Positions 3,288 to 53,971 of a DNA stretch of 64,000 nucleotides are shown in pieces; the stretch's first letter is position 1, and each line of letters begins with the position of its first letter. The stretch covers positions 338,879-402,878 of the forward strand of contig JAKJDF010000003.1 of NCBI GenBank assembly GCA_022706085.1, written 5' to 3'. Origin of the DNA: Candidatus Latescibacterota bacterium (GTDB taxonomy: Bacteria; Latescibacterota; MWCZ01). The notes below the pieces were generated by a model that saw nothing but the letters and a program-made list of their open reading frames with translations, had not been told where the DNA came from and searched no databases. Position numbers and translations under genes: made by a program.

Positions 3288-3304
3288 AACGGGAGGAGTT
3301 TTCC

Positions 3305-4177
3305 ATGAAGATCGCGTTTCATCAGATCACTTCAGGGTCCAAGAGAGACCTGAACGAGACGTTCGAAGCCTATGCTGACGCTGGATGGCGCCACTTCGAG
3401 GTGAACCTCTGGGAAACGGAGGAGTTTGTCACGCAACATGGTGCGAAGTCACTGGCGGATCTGGCGAAGGATTTCGGGCTGAAATGCGTTGGCGCGACAG
3501 GTCTCAGCATCCCCGCGTTTCAGGGTGGAGACGCTCTCGAGGCTGCATTAAAACAAATTGAAAGGCACGCGCAGGTGATGAATGCCCTCGAGTGCACCGC
3601 GATCGTGGTTGGTGGTGACGTGCCAAAGGATTTCCCACCTCGCGCGCAGAACTCCACGGAAGACGCTCTTTCAGCACGGGATGCCGCGTACAGGAACGCA
3701 CTGCGGGAATTTGCGACGGCGGTCGGACGGGTGGCAGAGGTCGCCGCGAAATACGGCGTCACACTGGCGCTGGAGGTCAACTGGTGCGGTCTCGCGCGAA
3801 GCTTCCGGACAATGGCGGAACTGGTGGCGATGGTTGATCGGGACAACGTGGGCGCCACGTGGGACCCCGCGCATTTTTACAGCACACCGTCACGCCTTTC
3901 CGATCTGGACCGCCTCAGAGGCAAGATCGTGCACGCCCATCTCAACGATATCCGAAACTGCTACATGGAAGCGATGGACATCAACGGCGACCGCATGCTG
4001 CCCGGCGACGGTGTGTTGCCACTCGTCGAATGGACCGACAAGATTCATTCACTGGGGTATCGCGGCTGGCATTGCGTGGAGTTGTTCAGCGACGATCTCT
4101 GGGCCGAACCGTTGCGTGAGATCGCAACGCGGACAAAAAAGTCCTGCGAACACGTATGGCCGAACGCCGAGTTCTGA
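3305..4177 (+). CDS. sugar phosphate isomerase/epimerase (xylose-isomerase-like TIM barrel)
   Basis: TIM-barrel sugar isomerase-like sequence (FHQITS..., LEVNWCGLARS, HAHLND). Strong GGGAGGAG RBS 7 nt upstream of the ATG at 3305. The track ORF begins at a TTG at 3284. Confidence 0.65.
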   Translation: MKIAFHQITSGSKRDLNETFEAYADAGWRHFEVNLWETEEFVTQHGAKSLADLAKDFGLKCVGATGLSIPAFQGGDALEAALKQIERHAQVMNALECTAIVVGGDVPKDFPPRAQNSTEDALSARDAAYRNALREFATAVGRVAEVAAKYGVTLALEVNWCGLARSFRTMAELVAMVDRDNVGATWDPAHFYSTPSRLSDLDRLRGKIVHAHLNDIRNCYMEAMDINGDRMLPGDGVLPLVEWTDKIHSLGYRGWHCVELFSDDLWAEPLREIATRTKKSCEHVWPNAEF

Positions 4178-4270
4178 AACCAGGAACGACGATCTCCTCA
4201 GGGAACACAACAAGGCGTGAGACGGCTATCGGGAAGTTGTTGGCCAAGTTGCAGGGAAGGACTGCTCGAC

Positions 4271-5863
4271 ATGGCGCTGAACGAACATGAACAGAAGATC
4301 GCCACAGCCCGGCATATGCGGGAGCACCTGCTGCGCGACCGGTATCGGCCTGGCTACCACTTCGCCATCCCGGAAGACATCGGGATGCCGGGCGACCCCA
4401 ATGGCGCCTTCTGGGCCAACGGCCGGTACCATCTCATGTATCTTTACAACCGGCGAGACGTGAAGGTGTGGGGCGGCAACGGCTTTTCGTGGGGGCACAT
4501 CTCCAGCTCCGACCTCGTACACTGGCGGCACCATCCGGATGCGCTGGTCCCCGGTGGCGACCATGGTGGGTGCTTCAGCGGCGGAGCTTTCGTAGATGAC
4601 GACGGGACAGCGTACCTGACGTACTGGAGATTGCAGACTTCGGAAAATATACCCGATGGATCGGGCATCGGCATCGCGCGAAGCAGGGATCCACACTTCG
4701 ACGAGTGGGAGAAGCTTCGCATTCCCACGCTGGATGGGACGCAATCGGGAATCCTTGAGACGCACGACGGCGCAGGGAATCCGCTGGTCCTATGCAATGC
4801 TGACCCCAGCAATATCTGGAAAAAGGATGGATTCTACTATTTGCAGGCGGGAAACCTGCCCGTTCTGCGGAAGCTGGAGAACTCAGAGGACGGATCGAAA
4901 CGATGGAAGGGCGACTGGGTCGATCTGTTTCGGTCAAGGGATCTTGTTGATTGGGAGTACGTCCACAGGTTCTACGCGAGAAATCCGACGAACAGGTGGA
5001 CGGACGAAAGCGAAGACGACATGTGCCCGAGCTTTCTCCCGCTCCCGAGCTCTTCTTCGGGTGGCGTTCCGAGCGGCAAATACCTCCAGCTTTTCATTTC
5101 CCACAACAAAGGGTGCCAGTACTACGTAGGAACGTACGACGAGGGGAGGGACCTCTTTCTGCCAGAGACACACGGCCGAATGACATGGGTTGACAACACG
5201 TTTTTCGCTCCAGAAGCACTGATCGATGACAAAGGCCGCCAGATAATGTGGGCGTGGCTTCTAGATAACGTGCCTTCCGAACCCGAACAACAGATTCTGG
5301 CAGGGTGGTCTGGAGTCTATTGTCTTCCAAGAACCCTCTGGCTCGGGGAGGACGGGATTCTGCGAATGGCGCCTGTGCCCGAATTGTCGGTGCTGCGGTT
5401 CAACTCACGCGTTTTCGACGACGTGATTCTCGACCCAGATTCTGAGAAAGCGCTGGAAGTGGCCAACGGCGAGTCGGCGGAAATCAATTTCTCCATCGAA
5501 TCGGTGACCGCGACGCAGGCAGGCCTGAAAGTCCGGACGAGCCCTCAAGACGAAGAAACAACTTTGTTGTATTGTGATTTCGAACGCAACAAGCTGGTGT
5601 TCGATTCTACACGGAGCGGGAACGCGGGGCGAAAAGTCAAAGAGGAAGCGCCGTTTGAGTGCCGCAGGGACGAACGCATCGATCTGCGTGTCTTCATAGA
5701 CAGGGCGGTGGTGGAAATCTTCGCGGGGGACCGCCAGGCGATCGCTCGCAGGGTCTACCCGGTTCGCGATGACAGCACCGGAGTGCGCCTGTTCTGTTCA
5801 GGAGGCGAAGTTGCATTCACTCGGATCAGAACCTGGGAAATGATGCCGTCGAATGCGTGGTAA
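4271..5863 (+). CDS. glycoside hydrolase family 32 (beta-fructofuranosidase/levanase-like)
   Basis: GH32 motifs: YRPGYHF, GDPNG (nucleophile block), RDP motif (SRDPHF). The EC acid/base block reads DMCPSF, so the Glu is not obvious. No signal peptide. ATG at 4271 with GGGAAGGA upstream. Confidence 0.7.
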   Translation: MALNEHEQKIATARHMREHLLRDRYRPGYHFAIPEDIGMPGDPNGAFWANGRYHLMYLYNRRDVKVWGGNGFSWGHISSSDLVHWRHHPDALVPGGDHGGCFSGGAFVDDDGTAYLTYWRLQTSENIPDGSGIGIARSRDPHFDEWEKLRIPTLDGTQSGILETHDGAGNPLVLCNADPSNIWKKDGFYYLQAGNLPVLRKLENSEDGSKRWKGDWVDLFRSRDLVDWEYVHRFYARNPTNRWTDESEDDMCPSFLPLPSSSSGGVPSGKYLQLFISHNKGCQYYVGTYDEGRDLFLPETHGRMTWVDNTFFAPEALIDDKGRQIMWAWLLDNVPSEPEQQILAGWSGVYCLPRTLWLGEDGILRMAPVPELSVLRFNSRVFDDVILDPDSEKALEVANGESAEINFSIESVTATQAGLKVRTSPQDEETTLLYCDFERNKLVFDSTRSGNAGRKVKEEAPFECRRDERIDLRVFIDRAVVEIFAGDRQAIARRVYPVRDDSTGVRLFCSGGEVAFTRIRTWEMMPSNAW

Positions 5864-5875
5864 TAGGGGGCCAAA

Positions 5876-7492
5876 ATGGGGTTGTGCGGAAGTCGCCTGG
5901 GTGGCGGGGAGACCAAGATGGAACTTCATGCGTTAACGAATTGCATCGTTGAAATACCTTTTCATTCAGCCGCGGTGTACCAGAATCCTTATGCGGATGT
6001 GACCCTCGACGTGGCGTTTTCGAACTCGCGGGGCGCGAAAATCATCGTTCCTGCTTTCTGGGCCGGCGGCGCAACCTGGAAGGTTCGATTTTCTGCTCCT
6101 TCTGCGGGAACATGGAGGTTCCAGTCAATCTGCGACAACCGGTCAGACATCGGTCTGCACGGGAGAACCGGCGCGATTTCGGTAAAGCGATATCGCGGCA
6201 GCAATCCTGTCCTGAAGCACGGGCGAGTGCGTGTTTCCCCGAACAGACGCTACCTGGAGCACCAGGACGGCACACCGTTTTTCTGGCTCGGCGACACGTG
6301 GTGGATGGGCCTTTGTACGCGTGTTGATTGGCCACACGGGTTCAAGGAACTCACCGCGGATAGAGTTGCGAAAGGGTTCAGTGTAATCCAGATCATCGCC
6401 GGACCCTACCCCGATATGGATGCGTTCGATCCACGGGCGCGGAATGAAGCCGGGTTTGCGTTTGAAAAGGGGTTCACCTCCGTCAACCCGTCATACTACG
6501 ACCACGCGGATCTGAAAATCGGACATCTCGTGGAATCGGGGCTCGTTCCCTGTATCGTTGGAATGTGGGGGTATTACCTCCCCGAAATCGGGGTGGAGCG
6601 CATCAAGCGCTTCTGGCGCTACCTCATCGCGCGGTACGGTGCGTATCCGGTTGTTTGGTGTGCCGCCGGCGAGGGCACCATGCCGTGGTACCTGTCGAAA
6701 ACACCAAAAGAGGACGCTCAGAAGCAGAAGTCGGGCTGGACGGACGTGTGCCGTTACATTCGCTCGACCGATGGATTCGGAAACGTGCTTACCATCCACC
6801 CGACCCGGTACGGGCACGAACAGGTTGAAGACAGAGCGGTACTCGATCTGAACATGTTGCAGACCGGGCATAGCGGGTACGAAAGCGTAGGTCCGACGAT
6901 CGAAAGCGTGCGAACCGCGTACGCGCTTGATCCGCCCATGCCCGTTCTGGATGGCGAAGTGAATTACGAGGGGATTCTCGGCAAGAGCTGGCAGGATGTC
7001 CAGCGGCTCTGTTTCTGGCATTCGATTCTGAACGGTGCGTGTGGCCACACGTACGGGGCAAATGGCATCTGGCAATGCAGTACGAAAACCGAACCGTACG
7101 GTGCGTCGCCACACGGACGCTGCTGGGGTAACACGCCCTGGCAGGAGGCAATGAAGCTCCCCGGTTCCACCCAGCTCGGGCTGGCTCGAAGGTTCCTCCT
7201 CCGACTCGATTGGCACCAGATGGAGCCCCATCCTGAGTGGACGCAAGAGGGTGCCAGCGCAGCCGGCATTCCCGAGCGGTTGCGAGTGATCTATTCACCG
7301 ATGGTCTGGGATCCTCCGGTCATCAAAGAATTGGAACCCGATGTGAAATACCATGCGCGCTTCTTCGATCCGGTTACGGGCGGGGAGCACCCTATCGGCC
7401 CCGTCGATCCCGCCCCGGGCGGAACATGGGCGCCTCCTGTCTTCCCCGAAATGCACGATTGGGTGATCCTTCTGCAGGCGGTTTCGGGATGA
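5876..7492 (+). CDS. DUF5060 + DUF4038 protein (GH140-like putative glycoside hydrolase)
   Basis: Signature DGTPFFWLGDTWW block of DUF4038/GH140-like proteins, preceded by an Ig-like N-domain. AGGGGG RBS upstream. Confidence 0.6.
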   Translation: MGLCGSRLGGGETKMELHALTNCIVEIPFHSAAVYQNPYADVTLDVAFSNSRGAKIIVPAFWAGGATWKVRFSAPSAGTWRFQSICDNRSDIGLHGRTGAISVKRYRGSNPVLKHGRVRVSPNRRYLEHQDGTPFFWLGDTWWMGLCTRVDWPHGFKELTADRVAKGFSVIQIIAGPYPDMDAFDPRARNEAGFAFEKGFTSVNPSYYDHADLKIGHLVESGLVPCIVGMWGYYLPEIGVERIKRFWRYLIARYGAYPVVWCAAGEGTMPWYLSKTPKEDAQKQKSGWTDVCRYIRSTDGFGNVLTIHPTRYGHEQVEDRAVLDLNMLQTGHSGYESVGPTIESVRTAYALDPPMPVLDGEVNYEGILGKSWQDVQRLCFWHSILNGACGHTYGANGIWQCSTKTEPYGASPHGRCWGNTPWQEAMKLPGSTQLGLARRFLLRLDWHQMEPHPEWTQEGASAAGIPERLRVIYSPMVWDPPVIKELEPDVKYHARFFDPVTGGEHPIGPVDPAPGGTWAPPVFPEMHDWVILLQAVSG

Positions 7493-9969
7493 CCTGGCCA
7501 CGAGTACTTCTCCAGCTGCAGGCACGGCGAAATGGAGCGGCGCACGAACCCCACGATGACCGCGCGAATACCTGCTCCTGGTCCGGGAAGCACCTTTCCG
7601 GGCAAGTATCAGGCCCGGTTGCTCGGGCCGACGCGAACCTGAAAGGTCAGGAAACTCAGACCGGCCGCGGAAAAGCCACGTTTGCCACGATCCTTGCGCT
7701 GGTGACATTGGTGGTGACATGCGGGCAAACGGGCGCCGCAACGTCGATAAGCGGGTATGTGCGTGAACGTGGCAGCCGGGAAAGCATCCCTTACGTCAGC
7801 GTCTACATTGAAGGGTTGCGTCTGGGTGGCATGACAAACGCGGCGGGTTATTATGTCATCAATGGTGTGCCGCCGGGCCGCCACGTGGTGGTCGCCGCCA
7901 TGATCGGTTACAATGAATCGCGGCAGACGTTGGTTGTCGCCGCGGAACCGCTCGTGCACAACATTGAGCTGTCCACGGAAGCGATTGAAGTTGCGGCAGT
8001 GGAAGTTCAGGCGGAACGCGCCCGGGCCCCTTCGCTCGAGATCATTCCCAGCAGGGAGACGCTTCGCGGTGTGGATCTGAAGATCGCTCCCGCGGCCGTG
8101 GAAGCCGATCCAATCCGGACACTCCATACGCTCCCGGGGGTGGTGCAGCTTTCCGATTTCAACACCGGGTTGTACGTGCGCGGAGGAACGCCGGATCAGA
8201 ACCTGATCCTTGTGGATGGTTCAGAGTTGTACAACGTGTCGCACATGTTTGGTCTGTTCTCGACGTTTCCTGCGGATGCGATCAAAACCACCGAGTTGCT
8301 CATGGGGGGATACCCGGCGCAATACGGTGGCCGGCTTTCCTCCGTGCTCAACGTGATCACGGAGGAAGGGAACAAGGAGCGATTCAGAGGCTCAGGCGGG
8401 GTAAGCCTGCTGAGCTCCCGCATGACATTGCAGGGCCCGTTCGGGAAAGGCTCGTTCCTTGTGTCGGGGCGGCGGACGTACCTGGAGCCAGTGTTCTGGG
8501 CTGCCAGCCGCTCAAGCGATGCGTTCGACGGAATGGGGTATTTCTTCTACGACTTCCAGGGCAAAATACATCAGATTCTTTCGCACTCCGATCAGTTCGC
8601 CATCGCCGGATACATGGGCAAGGACGCGTTCAAATACACCAACGATTTCATGGATACCCGCTTCGACTGGGGAAACAAATCAGTCTCCCTGAGCTGGAAT
8701 CACCTGTTTTCCGGGGAGCTCTACTCTCATGTGCAGGCAAATCTGAGCCGGTTTGTTTCGCACACTACGTTCAAGATAGAGGATTTCGGCGCCACGGATC
8801 ATAACGAGCTCTTCGACACGGATCTCAGGGGTGATCTTACCTGGTTCGCCAACGAGCGGCACACGTTTGAAACCGGCGTTCATATGAAACGAAACACCAT
8901 GCGCTTCGGGCAGGAATATGCCGGACAGAGTTACGAAGCATTCGATCTCATCGCATACGTCCCCAGCGCCTATGTGCAAGATAGCTGGAGACCGTGGCCG
9001 TTCCTCACGGTGCAACCTGGTCTCAGAGGGACGCTCTTCCGAAGCCGGCTCCGAGATACTCCCGAGTCCGCAACCTACTCTGCATTCGAACCACGGTTCA
9101 CCGTGCGCTACCAGCTGGGGGAACAGACCTTTCTGAAGGCGGCCACCGGGCGCTACAGTCAGTTCATTTTCCGCGTGCCGAGAGAATATCAGGGCATCTC
9201 GATGATGTCTGACATCTGGTTCACCTGCGACGACACGCCGGGAGGGTATCCTCAGCGCGCATGGCACTACGTGCTGGGACTGGAAACAAAAATACGGCAC
9301 GATGTCGATTTGTCGCTTGAAGCGTATTACAAGGATTACGCGGGCCTCGTGGAATTCAATGCCTCACAGACCGCCCCGCAGAGCGTCGAAGACGCACTCC
9401 TGAGGGGCGACGGATATGCATACGGGCTTGATGTTAACGTGAAAAAACGAGCCGGCCGAAACACGGGATGGCTGTCATACTCGATGAGTTGGACCGTTCG
9501 AACCATCGACGGACTGAACCTCGACGAGAACGGGAACCCGCAACCATTCTACCCGAAATTCGACGCGAGGCATCATCTGGACGCGGTGTACAGCTTTGAT
9601 CTATCGCGCCACTGGACCCTTAACAGCCGAATGTCATTGTCGTCAGGGCAGGGGTATACGAAAGTTCTCGGACGGTACGTGGTGGAAGATCCTCTGTTCA
9701 CCCAGGGCCTGTACTATCGCGGACAGAAAAACGGGGCCCGGCTGCCGTATTACATGCGCCTCGACGTAGGAGCGAAGGGCAGTTACCGATTCTGGGGAGT
9801 CAGGTGGATGCCGTTCTTCCAGATTGTGAACGTTCTCAATCGCGCGAATGAGTTCAACAGATACTACGACAGCGGCGACGCGGCGAAAGATCCGCCGGAG
9901 ACCGGCCGCGAACGAGTGATCCCCCAGTTGCCGTTCCTTCCAACCTTCGGCGTGGATGTGGAGTTCTGA
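7489..9969 (+). CDS. TonB-dependent outer-membrane receptor with carboxypeptidase-regulatory-like N-domain
   Basis: ISGYVRE...GYYVINGVPPGRH (CarbopepD_reg-like) followed by a plug domain (LYVRGGTPDQNLILVDGSELYN) and a long barrel ending in terminal Phe (GVDVEF). Start taken as the ATG overlapping the upstream stop (ATGA), but about 60 aa precede the hydrophobic signal-like segment, so the start is uncertain. Confidence 0.75.
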   Translation: MTWPRVLLQLQARRNGAAHEPHDDRANTCSWSGKHLSGQVSGPVARADANLKGQETQTGRGKATFATILALVTLVVTCGQTGAATSISGYVRERGSRESIPYVSVYIEGLRLGGMTNAAGYYVINGVPPGRHVVVAAMIGYNESRQTLVVAAEPLVHNIELSTEAIEVAAVEVQAERARAPSLEIIPSRETLRGVDLKIAPAAVEADPIRTLHTLPGVVQLSDFNTGLYVRGGTPDQNLILVDGSELYNVSHMFGLFSTFPADAIKTTELLMGGYPAQYGGRLSSVLNVITEEGNKERFRGSGGVSLLSSRMTLQGPFGKGSFLVSGRRTYLEPVFWAASRSSDAFDGMGYFFYDFQGKIHQILSHSDQFAIAGYMGKDAFKYTNDFMDTRFDWGNKSVSLSWNHLFSGELYSHVQANLSRFVSHTTFKIEDFGATDHNELFDTDLRGDLTWFANERHTFETGVHMKRNTMRFGQEYAGQSYEAFDLIAYVPSAYVQDSWRPWPFLTVQPGLRGTLFRSRLRDTPESATYSAFEPRFTVRYQLGEQTFLKAATGRYSQFIFRVPREYQGISMMSDIWFTCDDTPGGYPQRAWHYVLGLETKIRHDVDLSLEAYYKDYAGLVEFNASQTAPQSVEDALLRGDGYAYGLDVNVKKRAGRNTGWLSYSMSWTVRTIDGLNLDENGNPQPFYPKFDARHHLDAVYSFDLSRHWTLNSRMSLSSGQGYTKVLGRYVVEDPLFTQGLYYRGQKNGARLPYYMRLDVGAKGSYRFWGVRWMPFFQIVNVLNRANEFNRYYDSGDAAKDPPETGRERVIPQLPFLPTFGVDVEF

Positions 9970-10940
9970 TGGTAAGGAGACTCTGGCTTTCGGTCGCGTT
10001 GTTCGTGGTTGTCGCACAATCAGGGTGCATTCTCAATCCGGTCAAACCCGAGAAGAAAAACGTTCCCGAGCTCTTCCTGCAAGGGTTTCTGGTCGCTGGC
10101 GGGCCGATCGACAACATCATTCTCCGGAAGACAATCCCGCCGGAGATGTATTACGACTTCATGCCGCTGGGCAGGTACGCAGTGTCGGGCGCCGAAGTCG
10201 TGATTACCATCGACGGCGTTCCGCACCCGCTCCCAGAACTCCACGCGGGGACGTACGGTGACCCGAACCTGATTGCTCGCTCAGGGGCTACGTGCGAAAT
10301 CGAGGTGCGTTTCCCGGCAAACCACGAATTCGCCGGGCGGAGGTTGCACGGCACCACCACGATTCCAGAAAAGCCGCGTGCATCCGTAACAATTCACCCG
10401 TACTACGTCCAACGGGGAGCTCGTCTCGACGGCAATTCTCTCACCGGGCTCGTGTTTCCGCGCGAACTGTCTTACCCGGATTCTTTCGGCACCACTACGG
10501 AAAAGGAGCCGTTCCGACTTTCATGGCCGATAAGCGCCTCCGCGGCCGGGTACATGGTGGTGTCCACCGCGGTGGATACGCAGGGTACCGGGCTTCTGCG
10601 GCAACGAGATTACGAGGACTATCTTGATGGAAATTTCCGGGACCCCGTGAAGCGCCAGGCCAAGCGGTCAGCGGGATTCTACATTCTTCCCGATTCCTCA
10701 CAGAGCACCGTGTACTGGTTGCTGTTCAGTTACCGCGGTTGGCACGATGTGTCGATTGTGGCGTGCGACAGCGGGTACTGGGATTATATGGTGACGGTGC
10801 TCAATGACGCCGGAACCGGTGCTGATTCGGATGCCGGGGTGAAGCTGAACGTTCAGGGGGGGCTTGGGATTTTCTGTTCGTACGCTGCCGACACGACGCG
10901 TGCGTACATCCAGCCCGAGTGGCTTCCGTCAACCCGTTGA
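9969..10940 (+). CDS. DUF4249-like lipoprotein partner of the TonB-dependent receptor
   Basis: Signal peptide with lipobox (VVAQSG-C). Sits immediately downstream of a CarbopepD_reg TonB receptor with a TGATG overlap, the usual pairing. Confidence 0.55.
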   Translation: MVRRLWLSVALFVVVAQSGCILNPVKPEKKNVPELFLQGFLVAGGPIDNIILRKTIPPEMYYDFMPLGRYAVSGAEVVITIDGVPHPLPELHAGTYGDPNLIARSGATCEIEVRFPANHEFAGRRLHGTTTIPEKPRASVTIHPYYVQRGARLDGNSLTGLVFPRELSYPDSFGTTTEKEPFRLSWPISASAAGYMVVSTAVDTQGTGLLRQRDYEDYLDGNFRDPVKRQAKRSAGFYILPDSSQSTVYWLLFSYRGWHDVSIVACDSGYWDYMVTVLNDAGTGADSDAGVKLNVQGGLGIFCSYAADTTRAYIQPEWLPSTR

Positions 10941-10953
10941 CGGATGGAAACAG

Positions 10954-10980
10954 AAGGGCGCCCGAAAGGCGCCCTTTGTA
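10954..10980. terminator. bidirectional rho-independent terminator between convergent genes
   Basis: AAGGGCGCC-CGAAA-GGCGCCCTT hairpin followed by TGT; lies between the lipoprotein stop and the serS stop. Confidence 0.6.
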
Positions 10981-11009
10981 AGACCTGATGGCATGGCTCC
11001 GAATGTCCT

Positions 11010-12281
11010 CTACCGCGAGATTGTGTCCTGTCCGCCGAGGTAGGGCTTGAGCACTTCCGGAATCACTATGCTCCCATCCTCAAGCTGGTAGTTCTCCATT
11101 ATCGCAATCATCACGCGCGGCAACGCGAGTCCCGAGCCGTTCAGGGTGTGCACATATTCCGGCTTGGCGCTCGGGGCCGGCCGGTACCGGATATTTGCGC
11201 GCCTCGCCTGAAAGTCACGGAAATTGCTGCAGGAGCTGACCTCCAGCCATTCGCCGCAACCGGCTGCCCACACTTCCACATCGTATTTCATTGCCGCGGT
11301 GAAACTCAGATCGCCGGTGCACATCTGAACGATGCGATGGGGAAGCCCGAGTCCTCTGCACACATCCCGGGCATGCTCCACAAGAGAGGTCAGCTCCGCG
11401 TCAGAGGTCGCCGGCTCCACGAACTTCACCATCTCGACCTTATCAAACTCGTGGCCGCGCTTGATACCACGGACGTCCTTCCCTGCGGACATCTTCTCAC
11501 GACGGAAACACGGAGTATACGCCACGTGATAAAGCGGTAGTTGGGATTTCTCCAGCACTTCGCCAGCGTACAAGTTGGTGACAGGCACCTCCGCCGTGGG
11601 AACCAGCCAGAAGTCTTCCTCGGCGTCGTGGTAAAGGTTCTCACCGAACTTCGGAAGCTGACCGGTGCCTATCAGACATTCGTGTCGTACCACGGCGGGA
11701 GGGTAGACCTCCACGTACCCGTGCCTTGTCCTGTGGAGGTCGAGCATCCATGTGATAAGTGCGCGCTGGAGGCGGGCGCCATCTCCTACGAGAACGTAGA
11801 ACCTTGAGCCGCTTATTTTTACGCCGCGCTCAAAATCGAGAATTCCCAGGTCTGGTCCTATCTCCCAGTGGGGACGAGGCTCGAACGTGAACGTGGGAAG
11901 ATCGCCCTCCATGGCAGTCACGACGTTGTCTGATTCGTCTTTCCCCACCGGAACGTCGGGGTGGGGAAGGTTGGGTACCTCCAGCAGGCGGGCGTTGAGT
12001 TGCTCTTCCACCGCGCGCACCTGCTCATCGAGAACACCAATGCGATCGCTGACTTCACGCATCTCGAGAATCCGTGACTGCCGTTCCACCGAATCCTTGA
12101 CGGCGCTGATCGCCTTCGAAGCAGCATTGCGGCGCGCCTTGAGTTCCTCGACCTCGCGAATCAGGTTCCTTCGCGTCTCGTCAAGGGAGAGGATTTCGTC
12201 TATCGGCGCTTCCGTGAAAAGCTTCGCGATTTCCCGTCTGACGAAATCAGTCTGTTCTCTGATCAATCTCAGATCAATCAT
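11010..12281 (-). CDS. serS: seryl-tRNA synthetase
   Basis: N-terminal coiled-coil ([10 protein letters not shown]...), class II aaRS core ([12 protein letters not shown]). ATG at 12281; the track ORF extends to a TTG at 12299. Confidence 0.9.
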
Positions 12282-12327
12282 GGCTACGTCTCTCCGCAAT
12301 GCCGTGCGAAATGTACCGGCAGCACAA

Positions 12328-46389: not shown

Positions 46390-47226
46390 ATGCACCTCCG
46401 CGCGGAGGATCTTGAAGCGTACCGGGACCGGTTGTGGTGCCGCCTGCCATCGCTCCGAATCCATGATGAGGATGAGGCCGCCGCGTATCTGCAGCGGGTT
46501 CCGATGTGCCTCGCTTTTGGTGGGTATGCGCTCGGTGTGCCCACGATGTGGGTGGCCGCATGCGGCGTCCGCAATCCAGTTTTCCCCAGGCATTCCCATC
46601 ACGACGCGGCAGTAGGATTGGTATGGCGTGCGAAAGAGACGCTGGTCCATTCTGGTGCCGCGTATTACGGGCGTTTGTTCCTCAACAGACCCTCCTTTGT
46701 TGCCAGGAGCTGGCTTGCCACGGTGCTGGCCGGGTACCCGCCGGTGAAGCTTTCGCAAGAAGCACAGGCTGTTTCGCAAACGCTGAAAGAATCAGGTCCT
46801 CTTCCCACACGAGAACTCGGCATCCGGTCGGGCATTTGTGACCGACGGGTCCTCACAAAGGCGCTTGAGGAAGCCCAGACGGGATTGCGGGTTACAAAGG
46901 TGGAGGAACGCAGCGACCCGTTCACGTACGTGTGGGGTACGCTGAGCACGCTCTACGCGCAGGAAATCGATCAGGCGAAGGAGATTCCTCAGTGTGTCGC
47001 ACAGAGGAAGATCGTCGCGCTGTGGTTGAATTCGCTTGGATTTACACAAGCGGGGCGTCTCGCGAGGATACTCGGATGGGATGAGCGTATCGTCCGGAAC
47101 GCACTCGCCGATCTCGTCGCTTCAAAAACCGTTGTGGACGAGGTTTCACTGGAAGGCGCACGCGGATTCTGGGTGGGCATCCCCAGGCTTCTTGACGAAG
47201 GGATTACTGGCCCTGCGGTCGAGTGA
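46390..47226 (+). CDS. hypothetical protein, possibly winged-helix containing
   Basis: ATG ORF of 278 aa with no confident family; 3' end overlaps the convergent BMC gene by about 23 nt. Confidence 0.4.
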   Translation: MHLRAEDLEAYRDRLWCRLPSLRIHDEDEAAAYLQRVPMCLAFGGYALGVPTMWVAACGVRNPVFPRHSHHDAAVGLVWRAKETLVHSGAAYYGRLFLNRPSFVARSWLATVLAGYPPVKLSQEAQAVSQTLKESGPLPTRELGIRSGICDRRVLTKALEEAQTGLRVTKVEERSDPFTYVWGTLSTLYAQEIDQAKEIPQCVAQRKIVALWLNSLGFTQAGRLARILGWDERIVRNALADLVASKTVVDEVSLEGARGFWVGIPRLLDEGITGPAVE

Positions 47227-47833
47227 AAAGAGCCTGAATCACAGGGTCGGGATGCGGGATAACATGCGTTGAGGCCAGGGTGCCGACGCGTTCTGCCGCC
47301 ACGGCCCCGGCTGCGAGAGACGCTGTGACAGCCGAAACGTCGCCCGTGACGAGAACGGAAACCCTTGTCTGCCCGATCTTCTCTTTGGCAAGAAGCCCCA
47401 CATCGGCGGATTTGAGCATTGCGTCAAGCGCGGCCACGGCGCCGGCGAAGCCGCGCGTTTCCAGCATCCCCATTGCACGGTCATCCACCGGAACGAGTCC
47501 AACTGCTGGGATTATGTGGTTCCGGGATTTCAGAAGGCCGCTGATCGAGGGTTTGCACGCTATCCACATGGTGTATGCGCACGACGAGTAGCGCGGGATG
47601 ACTGTCGCGCCCACCAGAGCATCCAACTGCCTGGCTGTTGCTTCTCCGGCATCATGCGCAGCCGTGACCGCTGCCGCGTTCCCCGAAGCCTTGATGGTCA
47701 AGGCACCAAGCGTGTTGACCTCGAGCGCGATGAGGGTGATCGCCGCTGACTTCACCATCGCGTCTGCCACGACTACTGCAGGCGGAAGGCCCTGGACTTC
47801 AACGATGGTCAAAGCTTCGTCCGTTTTGCTCAT
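47204..47833 (-). CDS. bacterial microcompartment shell protein, tandem BMC domains (BMC-T, PduT-like)
   Basis: Two BMC (PF00936-type) domains. Domain 1: EALTIVEVQGL...ADAMVKSA...VIPR. Domain 2: [65 protein letters not shown]...HVIPHP. ATG start 3 nt after the aldolase stop. Confidence 0.85.
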   Translation of the reverse strand: MSKTDEALTIVEVQGLPPAVVVADAMVKSAAITLIALEVNTLGALTIKASGNAAAVTAAHDAGEATARQLDALVGATVIPRYSSCAYTMWIACKPSISGLLKSRNHIIPAVGLVPVDDRAMGMLETRGFAGAVAALDAMLKSADVGLLAKEKIGQTRVSVLVTGDVSAVTASLAAGAVAAERVGTLASTHVIPHPDPVIQALFTRPQGQ

Positions 47834-47836
47834 GCG

Positions 47837-48859
47837 TTACCTATTCGTCCGCATCTGACGCACGACCTCCGCGACAATCGCCTGAATTTCTGCTTCGGAA
47901 GGGGAGCCATCCTGCCCAAGGGGCTCGCACCCGACGGCTCCTTCGATCTCCGCAACGAAGCCATGTTCGCTGAGGATGCAGTGGAGAGTCTGGCGCACCG
48001 CGTTGAGATCGCACTTTTCTTTCGGGGAAAGTGGCTGGCGGGATTGCCCCATAACGAAGCCCCTCAAGCTGGCTGCCGCACGGAAGCCTTCCGGGAATCC
48101 CGCTCCGAACAGCATGACATTGATGAGCTCCAGCAGCTTGAACTGGATTCTGCGCGCCTCCTCGATCTGACCCGATTCCGCAAGCGCGTACAACTTCATC
48201 ACAACTTCCGGAACGATTCCGCTTGTGGCGATGGTTCCCCCATCGCCGCCCATCAACAACGCGGGCAGAATGATCTCTTCGGTACCGATGAGAATGCTGA
48301 AATCGGGGCGCCGTGGCCGCATACGGTTGATCAGGTTGAGGAAACGCGGAAAATCCCGGCTCGAATCTTTGATGCCGACGATGCGTGGGAAATCAGCAAG
48401 ACGCTCGATGGTGTCCAGGCTGATTTCGTTGGCAAACTGCGGGATGTTGTAAAGCACGATGTCGAGTTCCGTGTGGCGCGCAAGTTCGGCGAAGTACTCA
48501 CCCACTGAGTCCTGCGAGAGTTTGAAGTAGTAAGGCGCGCAGATGGCAGCCGCAGTGCAGCCCATTTCGGCGTACGCGGCGCAGGCGGCCAATGTGTCAC
48601 GGACTGTTGCCTCTGCTGCACCAGCGAGGACGGGAACGCGCCCATTGACCTGGCTGGCAACGATCCGGATGATTTCGCGCCGTTCTTCCGGACTGAAACG
48701 GGTGAATTCCCCGGTGCTCCCGTTGGGGTAGAGGCCGCTCACTCCCTTCTGAACGAGCCATTCTACGTAGCGACGAAGCTCGTCCTCCGCGATATTCCCG
48801 TTGCGATCCAGCGGTACGAGATTTGGCGTGAGGATACCCTTAATTCTGGCCTGTGACAT
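47837..48859 (-). CDS. DHDPS/NAL-family class I aldolase (2-keto-3-deoxy-sugar-acid aldolase-like) with C-terminal extension
   Basis: GSTGEF, YNIP, Schiff-base Lys block VGIKD. About 45 extra C-terminal residues: Gly/Pro/Ser linker then amphipathic helix SEAEIQAIVAEVVRQM. Confidence 0.8.
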   Translation of the reverse strand: MSQARIKGILTPNLVPLDRNGNIAEDELRRYVEWLVQKGVSGLYPNGSTGEFTRFSPEERREIIRIVASQVNGRVPVLAGAAEATVRDTLAACAAYAEMGCTAAAICAPYYFKLSQDSVGEYFAELARHTELDIVLYNIPQFANEISLDTIERLADFPRIVGIKDSSRDFPRFLNLINRMRPRRPDFSILIGTEEIILPALLMGGDGGTIATSGIVPEVVMKLYALAESGQIEEARRIQFKLLELINVMLFGAGFPEGFRAAASLRGFVMGQSRQPLSPKEKCDLNAVRQTLHCILSEHGFVAEIEGAVGCEPLGQDGSPSEAEIQAIVAEVVRQMRTNR

Positions 48860-48875: not shown

Positions 48876-49640
48876 TCAGAAGGTGATGGTCAATCCGCCG
48901 TCGATGGTGATTGTTTCACCAGTAATGTATGTTGCGTAGGGACCTGCAAGGAATACCACCGCTCCGGCGATTTCGTCCGGTCTGCCGGCACGGCGGAGAG
49001 GGAGATGGTGTCCCTCGACGTAGTTGGTGCGAAACCATTCCCCGGCGAGCTCGTTTTTCCCGCCGGCTTTGACGGACATCGGGGTATCCACAAAGCCGGG
49101 TGCAACTGCATTCACGAGGATGCCCTGGTCCGCAAGTTCCACGGCAAGGGCCCGAACGTACTGTGTAAGTGCGCCTTTTGCTGTTGCGTAGGCGGAAGCG
49201 CCTTTCTCGACCCGTTCGCGATGGATGCTTGTAACCACCACGATCCTGCTTCCGAAAGGCATCAGAGGGACGAACGCGCGTGTGCAATGCACGGCTCCCA
49301 TGAGCATGGTGTCAATGGGAAGCATCCAATCCGCGAGTTCGGAAGTTATGGGATGGGCTGCAGCCGACACGCCTGCGTTATTTACCAGCACGTGGAGCGC
49401 ACCCCAGCGATCACGGATCAGGTCCCTCGCGTTCGCTACCTGAGCCGCAACAGTGACGTCGGTCGGAATCACAAGATGGTCGCCTTCCGGCATGGCACTG
49501 CGGGTTTCTTCAAGCATTTCCTTCCGTCGCCCCAGCAGCCCGACAGACGCTCCTTCCCGTGCAAAGCGCACGGCGATGGAGCGTCCGATGCCGCTTCCCG
49601 CCCCGGTGATCACGGCGTTTTTGCCGTCCAATGTGCCCAT
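48876..49640 (-). CDS. SDR family sugar dehydrogenase
   Basis: TGAGSGIGR Rossmann motif, NNAG, SxnY...K catalytic pattern. GAGGAA RBS before the ATG at 49640. Confidence 0.8.
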   Translation of the reverse strand: MGTLDGKNAVITGAGSGIGRSIAVRFAREGASVGLLGRRKEMLEETRSAMPEGDHLVIPTDVTVAAQVANARDLIRDRWGALHVLVNNAGVSAAAHPITSELADWMLPIDTMLMGAVHCTRAFVPLMPFGSRIVVVTSIHRERVEKGASAYATAKGALTQYVRALAVELADQGILVNAVAPGFVDTPMSVKAGGKNELAGEWFRTNYVEGHHLPLRRAGRPDEIAGAVVFLAGPYATYITGETITIDGGLTITF

Positions 49641-49648
49641 TCCGTTCC

Positions 49649-50830
49649 TCAATCGAAATGGTCAATTTCGACCAACACTTTTCCGTTCAATTCGATCCGT
49701 ACAGGTTGCAGGTATTCCTTCGCAGCGCTTACGTCCAGTTCCATCCCGAGTCCCGTGGCTCGCGGCAGGCGAACCAGCCCATCCGAACCTGGAACCAACG
49801 GTGCGGCCACGAGGCGCTTTGCAAGGTCCGACGCGGCAGCAGGGAACTCGAGATACCGGAACATGGATTCGCCAGCGAAGACATGGAACGATGCCGCGAG
49901 CGAAAGATGCGATTTGAACGTATGGTTCACATAGATCGCACCGTGATTTCTGGTAAGTACCGCGACATCCCTCGCCGGAGTCAATCCGCCGATGCGTCCC
50001 ACGTCAATCTGGAGGAAGTCCACCTTTCCGTTGCAGAGGATATCCTGAGCCGTTCGGAAGCGCGCCGCACCTTCGCCCGCAGCTATGGGTACCGGGGGAT
50101 TCAGCGCTTTCAACTTGCCGTATTCGTCTACCGCGTCCGGAAGGAGAGGCTCTTCCAGCCAGGTAGGCCGGAACGGTGAGAACGCGAGAGCTCTGGCGTA
50201 TGCGGTTTCGTAATCAGTTCCCCAGGCGACTCCGGCGTCGATCATGATTTCCGCTTCTTCACCCATACCTTCGCGCGCGGCGGCTACCAGGTCTACGTCG
50301 AAATCCGCACCGTGTTTCCCCATCGGTCCCCAGCCGAATTTCGCGGCACGGAAGCCCAGTCTTCTCAATCCCCTCGCGCGTTCGAGGGTCTCCTGTGGTG
50401 TATCTGCGAACAAAACGGACGCGTAGGGGAGCTTTGGATACGCGATTGCGCTTCCGAGCAGGTGATACACCGGCTCGTCCAACTGTTTCCCGAGCGCATC
50501 CCACATCGCAATGTCGGCCGCGCTGTACGCGTGATCGATCTGTTCGATGTCAAGTCCCTGCCTGCGGACCTTCTGATACAACCTTCTGACATCTTCCGGC
50601 GTGTCGAGCCGCTCCCCGAGCAAAGATTCCCTGATGTTGATGATGTTCCCGTGCGACATCGGGCAGTAATACGCAGCGAGGCTCACCAGGGGAGACGCGT
50701 CGGATTCCCCCCAACCCGTCACCCCGGTGTTCGTTCGGATGCGCACAAGAAAAGTATCCTGCGTTCCATCGGCCGCGTCGGTAATATGGGGCATTGCGAG
50801 AATAAACGCGTCAACGTCCGTAATCAGCAT
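49649..50830 (-). CDS. enolase-superfamily (mandelate racemase / muconate lactonizing enzyme family) sugar-acid dehydratase
   Basis: MR/MLE N-terminal capping domain and barrel with metal ligands (IDAG..., EEP, ...DVG). ATG at 50830; the track ORF extends 45 codons further to a non-ATG start. Confidence 0.75.
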   Translation of the reverse strand: MLITDVDAFILAMPHITDAADGTQDTFLVRIRTNTGVTGWGESDASPLVSLAAYYCPMSHGNIINIRESLLGERLDTPEDVRRLYQKVRRQGLDIEQIDHAYSAADIAMWDALGKQLDEPVYHLLGSAIAYPKLPYASVLFADTPQETLERARGLRRLGFRAAKFGWGPMGKHGADFDVDLVAAAREGMGEEAEIMIDAGVAWGTDYETAYARALAFSPFRPTWLEEPLLPDAVDEYGKLKALNPPVPIAAGEGAARFRTAQDILCNGKVDFLQIDVGRIGGLTPARDVAVLTRNHGAIYVNHTFKSHLSLAASFHVFAGESMFRYLEFPAAASDLAKRLVAAPLVPGSDGLVRLPRATGLGMELDVSAAKEYLQPVRIELNGKVLVEIDHFD

Positions 50831-50832
50831 CG

Positions 50833-52143
50833 TCAACCTTTCGAACTGGTCGTGTTGCCGTAATAGCCGGCCTTCTCGTACGACTCGTCCAGAAGTTCGA
50901 TCACGTGAGCGACGGAAACGTCCATACCTGCTTGACGGACGCCTGCCTGGATCTGCATCTGGCATCCCGGATTAGCCGTCACCAATGTTTCAGCGCCGGT
51001 TTCGAACAACGCGCTCAATTTGCGCTGTAACACTTCTTCGGCGATATCGGCGTGGGTGAGATTGTATATGCCTCCGGAGGCACAACATCGATCGGCTCCG
51101 CGCAAGGGTCTGAAATCGAGGTCTGGAACTCCTTTGAGGACGTCCAACGGGGCAGTTTTCACCTTTTGGGCGTGGTACAGGTGGCACGGTGCGTCGTATG
51201 TGACTTTGCGTCGAATTGGCGCGCCTTTGACGACCCCCGTTCGGGCAAGCAGCTCGGTCACATCGCATACGCGAGATGCAAATCTGTGGGCGCGCGCAGC
51301 GTAGCGGGGGTCGTCTTTCAACAACTCCCCGTATTCTTTCATCAAAGCCGCGCAACCTGCCGCGTTCACAACGATGGGAGTGTCGTTGCTATCCTCCAGA
51401 GAATCGATGTTTTTCCTCGCCAGTTCCCTGGCAGCATCTACGAAACCGCTGTGGTCATGGAGAGAGCCGCAACAGGTCTGTGCCTGAGGAACCGTAACCC
51501 GAAAACCGTTCACCGCGAGGACGCGTGTGGTAGCCTGATTGACGTTTTTGAAGAGCTCATCCATCACGCATCCGCGGAACTGCACGACAGCTCCTCTTTC
51601 AGGAGCTTGCGGTGAAACGGGTGCGAATTCTCCTTTGCGGGGCGGCGGAGGCAGCATTTCAAGTCCCAGGCGGACGATTGATGGCAACCACCGCCACCAG
51701 CCGTTCGAAGGGCGCAGATGCCGGATTACACGCATCGGGTATACCGCCGGTCTGAGCAGAGAACGGCGGGGCAGAAGGTAAAGACCCATCCATCGCAACG
51801 CGCGCGCAAGCCACCCCATGTCCGACGCGCCCAGCCGTCGCAGATCGTGCCGCGCGGCCTCCATTATGGTTCCATAGCGCACGCCCGAAGGGCAGGCTGT
51901 CTCGCACGCGCGGCAGACGATGCACGATTCGATGTGGCGGGTGTATGCCTCATCGGGTGTGATTCTGCCCTCTGCTGCTGCCCGCATGAGGTAGAGCCTT
52001 CCGCGGGGAGAATCGTTTTCGTCTCCGAGAACGCTGTACGTGGGGCAATGGGGAAGACAGAAGCCGCAATGAACGCACGCGAGGAGATTATTCTCCTGTT
52101 TCTTCACGGCGTCTGGCAACAGACGTTTTCGTTTTCCAAACAC
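50833..52143 (-). CDS. glcF: glycolate-oxidase-type iron-sulfur subunit (GlcF-like, 2x4Fe-4S + CCG domains)
   Basis: CVHCGFCLPHCP and CIVCRACETACP ferredoxin motifs, C-terminal CCG-type Cys clusters (CCGS..., CCASGG). GTG start with GGAAG RBS. Confidence 0.75.
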   Translation of the reverse strand: MFGKRKRLLPDAVKKQENNLLACVHCGFCLPHCPTYSVLGDENDSPRGRLYLMRAAAEGRITPDEAYTRHIESCIVCRACETACPSGVRYGTIMEAARHDLRRLGASDMGWLARALRWMGLYLLPRRSLLRPAVYPMRVIRHLRPSNGWWRWLPSIVRLGLEMLPPPPRKGEFAPVSPQAPERGAVVQFRGCVMDELFKNVNQATTRVLAVNGFRVTVPQAQTCCGSLHDHSGFVDAARELARKNIDSLEDSNDTPIVVNAAGCAALMKEYGELLKDDPRYAARAHRFASRVCDVTELLARTGVVKGAPIRRKVTYDAPCHLYHAQKVKTAPLDVLKGVPDLDFRPLRGADRCCASGGIYNLTHADIAEEVLQRKLSALFETGAETLVTANPGCQMQIQAGVRQAGMDVSVAHVIELLDESYEKAGYYGNTTSSKG

Positions 52144-52161: not shown

Positions 52162-53487
52162 TCAGATTCCTTCCGCGAATCTGCCGGGATTGAGCACCCC
52201 GGAAGGATCGAAGGCTTGTTTCATTCCCTTCATGAGCGAGGCGGCCGTACCGGTCGGCCCCCACACGTCGATGTGCTCTTTCCATCCGGTTGGCAACTTC
52301 TGCAGGATGAGCGAACCGCCCGACGACACCACTTGCAGGCGGATTTCTGAGAGCGCGGGCAGAAGTGCTTGCATCACGGTCGCGTCGCAGGGGGTTTCCA
52401 CCATCAGCGTCGCGCACCCGACGCCAGCGGATGCCGAAAAGTATACGCATTCGGCGGCGTGTCGCAGCGTGTCGGCAACCATCGAGAGAAAAAGTGGAAG
52501 CCGCGACGGAACGGTGTTCAGGCGGACAACAATCGGAAATCCCAACGGAAGGTCTGAGACCATCTGCCAGAAAGCGCTCGCTGTCTGCGCGGGGACGGGC
52601 GCACGCACGCTCAATTCCAATTCCGAGGCGATCCTTTCCATCTGCATTGTCTGCACGCGCACATCGGCCTCTTCGCCCGCGACCCGGACGCAAAGGCACT
52701 GATCTGGCAGGTCGCCTTCCAGGCCCACTTTTCTGAGCGCGTTCTCTGATACGATCTCCAATGAAACCGGATTGACGTTCCTCGCCATCATGCATTCGGC
52801 CGTCTTCCAGACCCGATCGATCTCGTCCGATCCACACACCAATGTCATTTCCGTGGCCGGTTTCGGGTAGACCTTCAGACTTACTTGAGTTATGATCCCC
52901 AGCGTGCCGTATGAACCGGTGAAGAGACGAGTGAGATCATATCCCGCAACGTTCTTGACAACCTTCCCGCCGCTTTGGATGAGCTTCCCGTCGGGCGTGG
53001 CGATCTGGAGGCCAAGGATCCAATCCCGCGGTTGACCGTAACCAAGGCGCAGCGTTCCCGTCTGCGCGGTGGCAACTATTCCGCCGATTGTGCGGCTGCT
53101 GGCACCCGGGGGATCGAGAGGCAGGATCTGACCGTGCTCACCAAACACCCTGTTCAGGTTGGAGAGGAGACAACCGCTCTGAACAGTGGCCGTGAGATCG
53201 GCTGGCTCGTACTCCTCGAATGCGTTGAGGCGGGCCGTGGAAAGCCAGATGTCTCCCCTGCGGGGCGGGTTACCAATCGAGATTGCAGAACCAGAGCCGA
53301 TGGGAAGCACTGCCAGCCGTTCCCGCGCGGCAAGTTCCAGCACGGCGGCAACTTGCTGAGAATTGGCCGGTTTGACGAGGTATCTCGGCCGCACACCATC
53401 CAATGACGCCCATTCGACGGGCACTTCCGTGACAAAATCGTCGCCGGTAATCCGCGCAAGAGGAGTTCTCATTCCCGTTACCGTCAA
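52162..53487 (-). CDS. glcE: FAD-binding oxidase subunit (GlcE-like)
   Basis: FAD_binding_4 block (AVLPIGSGSAISIG), GlcE-like length. TTG at 53487, or ATG at 53472. Confidence 0.7.
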   Translation of the reverse strand: MTVTGMRTPLARITGDDFVTEVPVEWASLDGVRPRYLVKPANSQQVAAVLELAARERLAVLPIGSGSAISIGNPPRRGDIWLSTARLNAFEEYEPADLTATVQSGCLLSNLNRVFGEHGQILPLDPPGASSRTIGGIVATAQTGTLRLGYGQPRDWILGLQIATPDGKLIQSGGKVVKNVAGYDLTRLFTGSYGTLGIITQVSLKVYPKPATEMTLVCGSDEIDRVWKTAECMMARNVNPVSLEIVSENALRKVGLEGDLPDQCLCVRVAGEEADVRVQTMQMERIASELELSVRAPVPAQTASAFWQMVSDLPLGFPIVVRLNTVPSRLPLFLSMVADTLRHAAECVYFSASAGVGCATLMVETPCDATVMQALLPALSEIRLQVVSSGGSLILQKLPTGWKEHIDVWGPTGTAASLMKGMKQAFDPSGVLNPGRFAEGI

Positions 53488-53509: not shown

Positions 53510-53836
53510 TCAGTAGCGTTTCATTGCCGGTTCAACGGCCGTGCACCAGCTGTCGATGCCACCTTCCAGGCTGATGACGTTTCTAACACCGTGCGCGATT
53601 GCCATGGCGCAGGCCTGGCGACTGCGCCCTCCGTGGTGGCAATGGAAGACGTACTCCTTGTCGGGCTCAAGAGCGTCTATCCACCCTGAAATCTGGCTCA
53701 AAGGGCGGAGAAGGGCTCCTTCGATGTGGCAAATGTCCCACTCGTTCTGCTCGCGGACGTCTACCAGAACGAAGTCCTTTCCGTTTTCGAGCAATTCCTT
53801 CAATTGAGCGGGCGTAATTGTCCTGATCTCCGCCAT
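53510..53836 (-). CDS. rhodanese-domain sulfurtransferase
   Basis: Single rhodanese domain with active-site FHCHHGGRS. GAGGAAAGG RBS before the ATG at 53836. Confidence 0.75.
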   Translation of the reverse strand: MAEIRTITPAQLKELLENGKDFVLVDVREQNEWDICHIEGALLRPLSQISGWIDALEPDKEYVFHCHHGGRSRQACAMAIAHGVRNVISLEGGIDSWCTAVEPAMKRY

Positions 53837-53971
53837 GCCTTTCCTCGTGGAAAGTTTTCGATCGAAAGGGACAAACCAAAGGTACATGCGCTCAGCAGGG
53901 ATTCCTAGGCCGCAGCACCTCGCGCGGGGTTGTTTGCCACTGTTTCGTGTCGTCGGTAAATTCTGAACATT

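Follow-up and report, generated by a model that had tools for sequence, protein, structure and literature searches.

A tandem-domain microcompartment shell gene and a tail-bearing class I aldolase form a conserved pair in a Latescibacterota genome, probably as a satellite module of a metabolosome encoded elsewhere

The window analysed here is a 64,000-nucleotide stretch from a Candidatus Latescibacterota bacterium (assembly GCA_022706085.1, contig JAKJDF010000003.1, positions 338,879 to 402,878). It carries a single gene for a bacterial microcompartment (BMC) shell protein, a tandem-domain tile (BMC-T) directly behind a gene of the dihydrodipicolinate synthase/N-acetylneuraminate lyase (DHDPS/NAL) family. 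The two genes and their parts are the following, with structural confidence given as the predicted local distance difference test score (pLDDT) of AlphaFold2 (AF2) models.

47204..47833, minus strand: shell gene of the BMC-T(s) class, 209 residues (two PF00936 domains; colinear with PduA, EutM and CcmK2; AF2 model; ratio of nonsynonymous to synonymous substitution rates, dN/dS)
47534-47833, minus strand: BMC-T domain 1, approximately residues 1-100
Residues 101-118, minus strand: BMC-T inter-domain linker
47207-47479, minus strand: BMC-T domain 2, residues 119-209
47834..47836, minus strand: spacer of 3 nt, from the TAA stop of the aldolase gene (47837-47839) to the BMC-T start codon ATG (read from the sequence)
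47837..48859, minus strand: DHDPS/NAL-family class I aldolase, 340 residues, predicted cargo or signature enzyme (PF00701, E 8e-63)
47897..47965, minus strand: linker from barrel to helix, aldolase residues 299-321 (pLDDT 50-63; poorly conserved)
47846..47896, minus strand: predicted encapsulation-peptide helix, aldolase residues 322-338, EAEIQAIVAEVVRQMRT (AF2 pLDDT 82-85; motif conserved)

The open reading frame (ORF) of the shell gene starts with ATG, encodes 209 residues and has no internal stop codon. In the Pfam scan PF00936 matches its product twice (E 4.8e-38), and tblastn with PduA returns matches at 47821-47591 and 47488-47210. Each domain is colinear with PduA (residues 1-91) and EutM (residues 2-86), and also with CcmK2; the domains are therefore unpermuted and the protein is a non-permuted tandem tile of the BMC-T(s) class. 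The AF2 monomer (mean pLDDT 89) contains two alpha/beta BMC folds, both with the element order strand-helix-strand-strand-helix-strand. Domain 2 is hexamer-like, sharing approximately 45-51% identity with PduA, EutM and CcmK2, and domain 1 is divergent. A sequence-only reading of this DNA had made the shell role depend on edge lysines suited to tiling, and these are present: K28 in domain 1 and K141 in domain 2, both within a D-A-M-x-K motif, do not vary among 18 relatives. The tile also keeps PRPH-like edge motifs, IPRYS in domain 1 and IPHPD in domain 2 (IPRPD or RPH in relatives). Its pore-loop sequences are EVNTLGA (domain 1) and KIGQTRV (domain 2), and those of members from the Planctomycetes-Verrucomicrobia-Chlamydiae (PVC) group read ELAHQGG or EPTGIET, with KIGAAYV in domain 2.

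The possibility of a truncated pseudogene, also raised by that reading, is ruled out by the intact ORF, by a dN/dS of 0.23 against the 89%-identical orthologue in the relative L008, and by the invariance of K28 and K141 in the 18 relatives. In the same comparison the aldolase has a dN/dS of 0.016, and two further genes of the operon lie at 0.06-0.09. Between window positions 47204-48859 and L008 positions 8975-10630, the aldolase is 99% identical (dN 0.0065) and the tile 89% (dN 0.058), so that nonsynonymous change is about nine times faster in the tile, fastest of all in domain 1 and the linker. The shell gene is under purifying selection, clearly looser than that on the aldolase.

Two familiar identities for the tile were rejected. 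The PduT-like Fe-S pore cysteine that was looked for is absent from both loops, and the TIGR02526 score, 39.5 bits, is far below the cut-off of 250; the cysteines that the tile does have, Cys84 and Cys92, are unconserved and belong to the segment that follows domain 1. Membership of the CcmO/carboxysome group fails on NF053792 (114 bits against a cut-off of 270), and the window contains no carboxysome genes. The AF2 tile model superposes on 6NER, a synthetic tandem fusion of BMC-H (hexamer) domains, with a template modelling (TM) score of 0.75-0.89, and on the natural BMC-T(s) structures of PduT and HO-5812 with a TM score of only about 0.4. As far as a predicted model can indicate, this contrast suggests that the domains are placed differently with respect to each other or that the tile arose independently, through hexamer duplication. 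In Planctomycetales tiles (L030 10001-10738; L036 10103-10804) a low-complexity insert of 50-80 residues separates the domains. The motif ahead of it is GGDHMLP, and in Verrucomicrobiota YGGR(E/D)xxxP.

The tile does not travel alone. The 3-nt gap between the aldolase stop and the tile start, which the sequence-only reading had linked to translational coupling, is confirmed on the minus strand (...AAT AGG TAA CGC ATG AGC...). Tight or overlapping aldolase/tile junctions recur in distant orthologues, and the pattern therefore fits co-translation of the two proteins. Protein look-ups of ever more distant tile homologues found a PF00701 gene (340-353 residues) immediately upstream in four different gene contexts. 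At 89% identity the gene order is that of the window; at 60%, two Amidohydro_2 genes, an MR_MLE gene and a short-chain dehydrogenase/reductase (SDR) gene lie upstream; at 52%, genes for a rhodanese, GlcE and GlcF; and at 38%, a gene for an unknown protein of 269 residues. In a scan of one genome per species, the aldolase gene precedes the tile in all nine family matches, whose hosts are Latescibacterota, two unclassified bacteria, Fimbriimonadaceae, two Planctomycetales, Opitutales, Kiritimatiellia and Verrucomicrobiota metagenome-assembled genomes (MAGs). No BMC-P (pentamer) or second BMC gene lies within 10 kb of these species-representative pairs. A metagenome scan added 80 tile relatives, and an aldolase is found directly upstream in 46 of the 61 that are assessable, that is, with at least 1 kb of upstream sequence. 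The pairing also holds from the other side: when relatives were picked by aldolase similarity alone, a BMC gene followed directly in three out of three, with a 4-nt overlap in two. The aldolase of the window is 47%-99% identical to the upstream gene of every pair locus, and the pair occurs in Latescibacterota, Armatimonadota, Planctomycetota, Verrucomicrobiota and Kiritimatiellia. The conserved unit is thus the aldolase and BMC-T pair, with neighbours that vary.

Is the tile solitary, as the sequence-only reading maintained? All six frames of the window were searched by tblastn and phmmer (--max) with PduA, EutM, CcmK2, EutN, CcmL and PduN and with both domains of the tile itself. There is no further BMC-H, BMC-T or BMC-P coding potential in the 64 kb (next-best E at least 0.017), and Pfam scans agree. 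Among 39 further large ORFs of the window, these scans found housekeeping genes and no gene for a shell protein, aldehyde dehydrogenase (AldDH) or phosphotransacylase (PTAC), the ORFs at 4..12299 and at 54-58 kb being identified only through equivalent called genes in L019 and L008. Approximately 9 kb past the left edge, as represented in L019, also contains no shell gene. A satellite BMC locus is understood to hold PF00936 or PF03319 genes, not both, with a main locus elsewhere in the genome (Axen et al., 2014; Sutter et al., 2021). One PF00936 gene and no PF03319 gene lie in the 64 kb together with the 9 kb to its left. The arrangement is general: 23 pair loci extend for at least 5 kb on both sides, and 21 of them show no other shell gene, so that the satellite arrangement is the rule.

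Shell genes elsewhere in the organism are indicated by the literature. The exact tile protein is on record as OQB39515.1 (BWY06_01622, "hypothetical protein") from the MAG Ca. Latescibacteria bacterium ADurb.Bin168, and a 467,744-bp contig carries it as well. For the same MAG the published BMC trees list BWY06_01657, a 99-residue BMC-P labelled "fragmented (main)", and BWY06_00608, a 183-residue PduT-type BMC-T labelled "(sat)" (Sutter et al., 2021, PMC8217296). Since the exact protein comes from ADurb.Bin168 and further shell genes are catalogued there, the satellite reading holds: the evidence supports the window shell gene as a satellite of a main BMC locus elsewhere in the genome, and the missing shell partners are encoded elsewhere in the organism as binned, at the level of the MAG and of the published label. 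Of the two alternatives offered by the sequence-only reading, it is this one that is favoured, and it is strengthened by three contigs in which the pair adjoins shell loci.

In two of these contigs, L141 and L171, the neighbour is a complete metabolosome locus (Pfam-confirmed) with genes for PTAC, three BMC-H, BMC-P, AldDH, two more BMC-P and a 353-residue class II aldolase (PF00596). In the third, L169, matches to AldDH, BMC and BMC-P lie within about 6 kb of the pair (tblastn only). The locus of L141 and L171 has the PVM-type layout described previously (PMC4207490, PMC8217296) with the pair added, giving two aldolases for one compartment. The aldolase and tile pair appears to belong to an organelle. 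The PVM-like main loci themselves, with both the PF00596 class II and the tagged class I aldolase, span 377-7843 in L141 and 9045-17289 in L171. On the complete Latescibacterota chromosome L086, the locus comprises BMC-H, BMC-P, AldDH with an N-terminal encapsulation peptide, BMC-T and two BMC-P, with no signature enzyme.

How might the aldolase be connected to a shell? In the AF2 model its barrel ends near residue 298 and is followed by a linker, whose length and sequence differ between orthologues, and by the terminal helix, which is amphipathic. Orthologues from five phyla share the motif I/V-x-x-I-V-x-x-V-h-x-x-L/M at the extreme C-terminus. The hydrophobic residues of the tail stand at i, i+3, i+4, i+7, i+8 and i+11, and its hydrophobic moment (0.38) is comparable to that of reference encapsulation peptides. 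The N-terminal AldDH peptides of the L086 main locus and of L141 follow the same pattern, as presumably do the peptides of EutC and EutE. The tail has, by sequence and model, the architecture of an encapsulation peptide and may well function as one. It is found in all 120 closest aldolase relatives (57-100% identity), which have 323-374 residues apart from one of 301 residues that is clipped at a contig end and keeps the tail too. Solved DHDPS/NAL chains among the top PDB matches mostly have 289-316 residues (up to 343), and their alignments stop at query residues 271-296, short of the tail. Because the tail is so constant, a BMC gene follows in all three relatives sampled, and the alignments of the solved chains end before it, the extension appears specific to compartment-associated homologues.

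The enzyme fits no named model closely: none in NCBIfam exceeds its cut-off, and the HpaI-like, DapA, NanA and KdgD scores are similar. An identity as DapA was rejected (TIGR00674 166 bits against a cut-off of 206; the position of Arg138, which binds aspartate semialdehyde in DapA, is unconserved). In the alignment LYNIPQFANE stands in place of the LYNVPGRTG-type motif of DapA.

Further genes of the same strand precede the pair.

48876..49652, minus strand: SDR oxidoreductase, putative sugar 1-dehydrogenase (PF13561, PF00106)
49649..50830, minus strand: MR_MLE enolase-superfamily acid-sugar dehydratase, 393 residues from the start MLITDVD (PF13378, PF02746)
50833..52143, minus strand: GlcF-like Fe-S/CCG subunit of a glycolate/lactate-type oxidase (PF02754, Fer4 families)
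52162..53487, minus strand: GlcE/GlcD-like FAD-binding subunit (PF01565, PF02913)
53510..53887, minus strand: rhodanese-domain protein, first gene of the same-strand run (PF00581)

The closest solved relatives of the SDR are aldose/glucose 1-dehydrogenase-like proteins. The dehydratase is called as 393 residues in L004, L008 and L011 as well, and in the PDB it is matched best by 2HZG (E 6.5e-104), an entry without a function-specific name; PDB searches do not fix the specificity of either enzyme. The GlcF model of NCBIfam reaches 294 bits against a cut-off of 333, and GlcE and GlcD also stay below theirs. The rhodanese-first gene order is repeated in L008, L018, L022 and L023. Consensus scans for promoters and terminators gave counts within shuffle expectation and are uninformative on operon limits. 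In L008 (GCA_035395565.1, the 89% relative) the operon SDR is called at just 80 residues (8554-8793), which may be a frameshift or an assembly error.

These neighbours point to a type of pathway. MR_MLE, SDR and Amidohydro_2 genes flank the pair in some relatives, including L011, and near Planctomycete-type pairs there are genes for RhaT, a GH106 rhamnosidase, aldo-keto reductases and further MR_MLE proteins. Judged from family membership, MR_MLE, SDR, Amidohydro_2 (in L011) and aldolase together are the gene set of non-phosphorylated aldose pathways. In the non-phosphorylated fucose route of bifidobacteria, a DHDPS-annotated gene has been proposed to encode the aldolase for 2-keto-3-deoxy-L-fuconate (L-KDF) and 2-keto-3-deoxy-L-rhamnonate (KDR), releasing pyruvate and L-lactaldehyde (PMC5080750). 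A class I aldolase yielding L-lactaldehyde by such a route would fit its class II neighbour in L141 and L171. Glycolaldehyde from a pentonate is a possible alternative product, since the upstream genes in the lineage of the window are glycolate/lactate-oxidase-like.

What, then, would a single tile and a single aldolase contribute? The pair is probably a plug-in module through which 2-keto-3-deoxy sugar acids are supplied to a metabolosome encoded elsewhere. The tile would be a trimeric pseudohexamer of the BMC-T(s) class in a shell whose hexamer, pentamer and AldDH genes lie elsewhere, and together with the class I aldolase and its C-terminal encapsulation peptide it would make up a portable cassette, inherited and translated jointly. 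The SDR and the enolase-superfamily dehydratase of the operon would act in the cytosol, converting a sugar, most likely the 6-deoxyhexose L-fucose or L-rhamnose, to a 2-keto-3-deoxy sugar acid. This acid would enter the compartment, where the encapsulated aldolase would split it into pyruvate and an aldehyde (L-lactaldehyde most likely, glycolaldehyde possibly), and the aldehyde would be used inside by the CoA-acylating aldehyde dehydrogenase of the organelle. The tile may serve as a pore for the larger anionic substrate, as a docking surface for the aldolase tail, or as both. It is appealing to think of the pore as suited to an anionic C5-C6 acid, though the variation of the pore loops weakens this, and a role in docking the tail is equally open. 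Encapsulation, the identity of substrate and aldehyde, and the part played by the tile as pore or dock are what we infer from the gene content and the tail.

Several observations weigh against this plug-in module. The evidence for a main locus is a published tree label for a binned MAG, in which binning errors are possible. The BMC-P of ADurb.Bin168 was not recovered among the best 120 of 4045 matches to the three BMC-Ps of L086, and none of these best 120 matches lies on the long contigs that carry window genes. Upstream aldolases are missing from 15 of the 61 assessable metagenome relatives. Residues of the pore loops are not conserved (domain 2 reads KIGQTRV in the window and KIGAAYV in PVC members), and a single pore specificity shared by all members is therefore less likely. 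The hydrophobic moment of the tail exceeds that of shuffled controls only modestly, a measure that discriminates weakly for the reference peptides too. On the metabolic side, no NCBIfam model reaches its cut-off for the dehydratase or the SDR any more than for the aldolase, the neighbours in the Latescibacterota lineage are glycolate/lactate-oxidase-like and not fucose or rhamnose genes, and the dehydratase and SDR are absent in two contexts (L015 and L018). Among the tile relatives that stand apart from an aldolase, a solitary BMC-T in L119, L156 and L163 lies behind a gene ending ...LLEASGGVTLETV...GVDRISVGAITHS, presumably for a NadC-type phosphoribosyltransferase.

A more far-reaching form of the same idea is tentatively possible. 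The pair could be a retrofit kit, in which the tile is a receptor and gate dedicated to the aldolase encoded with it, and in Latescibacteria it could supply the missing signature enzyme of the AldDH-only organelles (MIC7 or fragmented). If so, two transferred genes would be enough to equip any aldehyde-oxidising compartment for a non-phosphorylated sugar-acid route.

It is unlikely that the tile is instead a generic permeability-tuning satellite of the CcmK3/K4 type, with its adjacency reflecting co-regulation, the aldolase remaining in the cytosol and the tail serving oligomerisation or regulation. Such a role would agree with the proposal that satellites in general alter shell permeability (Sutter et al., 2021, PMC8217296), with the difference in pore loops between lineages and with the ninefold faster nonsynonymous change of the tile. 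It leaves unexplained, however, why the aldolase tail has a full encapsulation-peptide architecture that matches the AldDH targeting peptides of related loci and is universal among the 120 closest relatives, and why the pairing also holds when sampled from the aldolase side.

Slightly less probable still is a shell-independent complex, in which BMC-T trimers or sheets would scaffold the aldolase tail and cluster the pathway without a closed compartment. This was the second alternative of the sequence-only reading, and nothing found here specifically supports it. The lack of a nearby shell gene at 21 of the 23 pair loci, the standing of the pair as the sole invariant unit among varying neighbours and the tight or overlapping gene junctions would all be compatible with a scaffold. 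However, the one genome that could be checked is listed with a BMC-P and further BMC genes, the pair stands beside full loci in L141 and L171 (and L169, by tblastn only), and the host phyla are known for PVM, ACI, MIC7 and FRAG organelles. Furthermore, members of the related "T_pvm" clade bear satellite labels in genomes with main loci, and the tile retains both edge-lysine motifs for tiling with hexamers.

That the enzyme releases no aldehyde, being a DHDPS-family dehydratase or decarboxylase (of the KdgD or 2-keto-3-deoxy-L-arabinonate (L-KDA) dehydratase type) or a biosynthetic DapA with a different link to the organelle, is very improbable: the similar sub-cut-off scores of the HpaI-like, DapA, NanA and KdgD models and the presence of dapB and dapF in the window speak for it, but the Arg138 position is unconserved, the gene follows those for a sugar-acid dehydratase and a sugar dehydrogenase, relatives adjoin a class II aldolase metabolosome, and KdgD-type models score lowest.

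Satellite BMC-T(s) genes have already been catalogued, and it is the conserved pairing of aldolase and tile that is the moderately interesting part. No description of this pairing was found in the literature searched, although the figures of PMC8217296 may show it. In many catalogued loci (MIC, FRAG, HO, ACI) an AldDH is present and the aldehyde-generating enzyme and substrate are unassigned; a conserved class I aldolase with a targeting tag, accompanied by its own tile, is a concrete candidate for some of them. A further suggestion from the pairing is that a second, non-phosphorylated entry route may lead into the fucose/rhamnose organelles of Planctomycetes and Verrucomicrobia. A natural enzyme with its matching tile would further be a useful part for engineered synthetic compartments.

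Other features of the window lie outside the pair. An AlkZ-like DNA glycosylase gene (46390-47226, plus strand; PF24741, PF06224) is convergent with the shell gene and overlaps it by 23 nt at its 3' end, an overlap repeated in all close relatives (L001-L010). An 888-residue protein with two FAD_binding_4 modules, resembling a GlcD-GlcE fusion, is encoded at 40279-42945 on the plus strand; the GlcE-like and GlcF-like operon genes lie about 7 kb away, on the other strand. The PurL ORF (43458-46382, plus strand) has 974 residues from its first start, with a weak N-terminal PurS-like match, and 954 residues in relatives. A 1228-residue ORF (30859-34545, minus strand) has no Pfam match at E <= 1e-5.

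Among described shell proteins, the tile resembles PduT, likewise a single chain of about 185-210 residues that contains two non-permuted BMC domains, and differs from it in the absence of a pore cysteine and of an adjacent PduS. Its family is probably the T_pvm/Ts_mud clade of the 2021 BMC-T(s) tree, to which it is likened by length, taxa and satellite status alone. The clade has approximately 22 representatives, nearly all "PVM (sat)" from Planctomycetes and two "ACI (sat)" from Acidobacteria; they are tandem non-permuted tiles of 173-242 residues, satellites in genomes with aldolase-type metabolosomes (PMC8217296), a description that the Planctomycetales tiles of L030 and L036 fit. BWY06_01622 does not appear in the portions of the 2021 trees examined, and the catalogue text mentions no PF00701 neighbour for the clade, naming PF00701 once, for MUF2 (PMC8217296).

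The PVM metabolosome offers a likeness in chemistry. Its aldolase releases L-lactaldehyde inside a shell that also holds AldDH and PTAC (Erbilgin et al., 2014, as summarised in PMC4207490 and PMC8217296). This signature enzyme belongs to class II (PF00596) and acts on phosphorylated ketoses, whereas that of the pair is class I; the PVM shell as described is built from two BMC-H and three BMC-P, without a BMC-T, and the window has no PF00596, AldDH or PTAC gene. As is predicted for the enzyme of the pair, the PVM aldolase carries a C-terminal encapsulation peptide. The catalogue text ascribes such a C-terminal peptide to ACI and MUF aldolases (PMC8217296).

Closer in taxonomy are the MIC7 and FRAG loci of Latescibacteria and other candidate phyla, which are described without a signature enzyme; searches of fragmented-locus genomes with hidden Markov models of encapsulation peptides were negative (PMC8217296). 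The gene set of L086, from the same phylum as the window, matches the MIC7 description. The pair is a candidate to supply the signature enzyme for such loci, L086 and the window being separate genomes.

The closest described precedent, by analogy, is the EUT module, in which EutA, EutB and EutC occur with an EutL-type BMC-T as satellites of non-EUT organelles (Sutter et al., 2021, PMC8217296). There the signature enzyme is a B12-dependent lyase and the tile a permuted EutL-type BMC-T(sp); here the enzyme is one class I aldolase of the DHDPS family that ends in a C-terminal helix, the tile is a non-permuted BMC-T(s), and the substrate would be a sugar acid. What the two share is an aldehyde-generating signature enzyme joined to one trimeric tile away from the main locus, an arrangement that, for the EUT module, has been read as opening a compartment that is already there to an additional substrate, which the tile lets in (PMC8217296).

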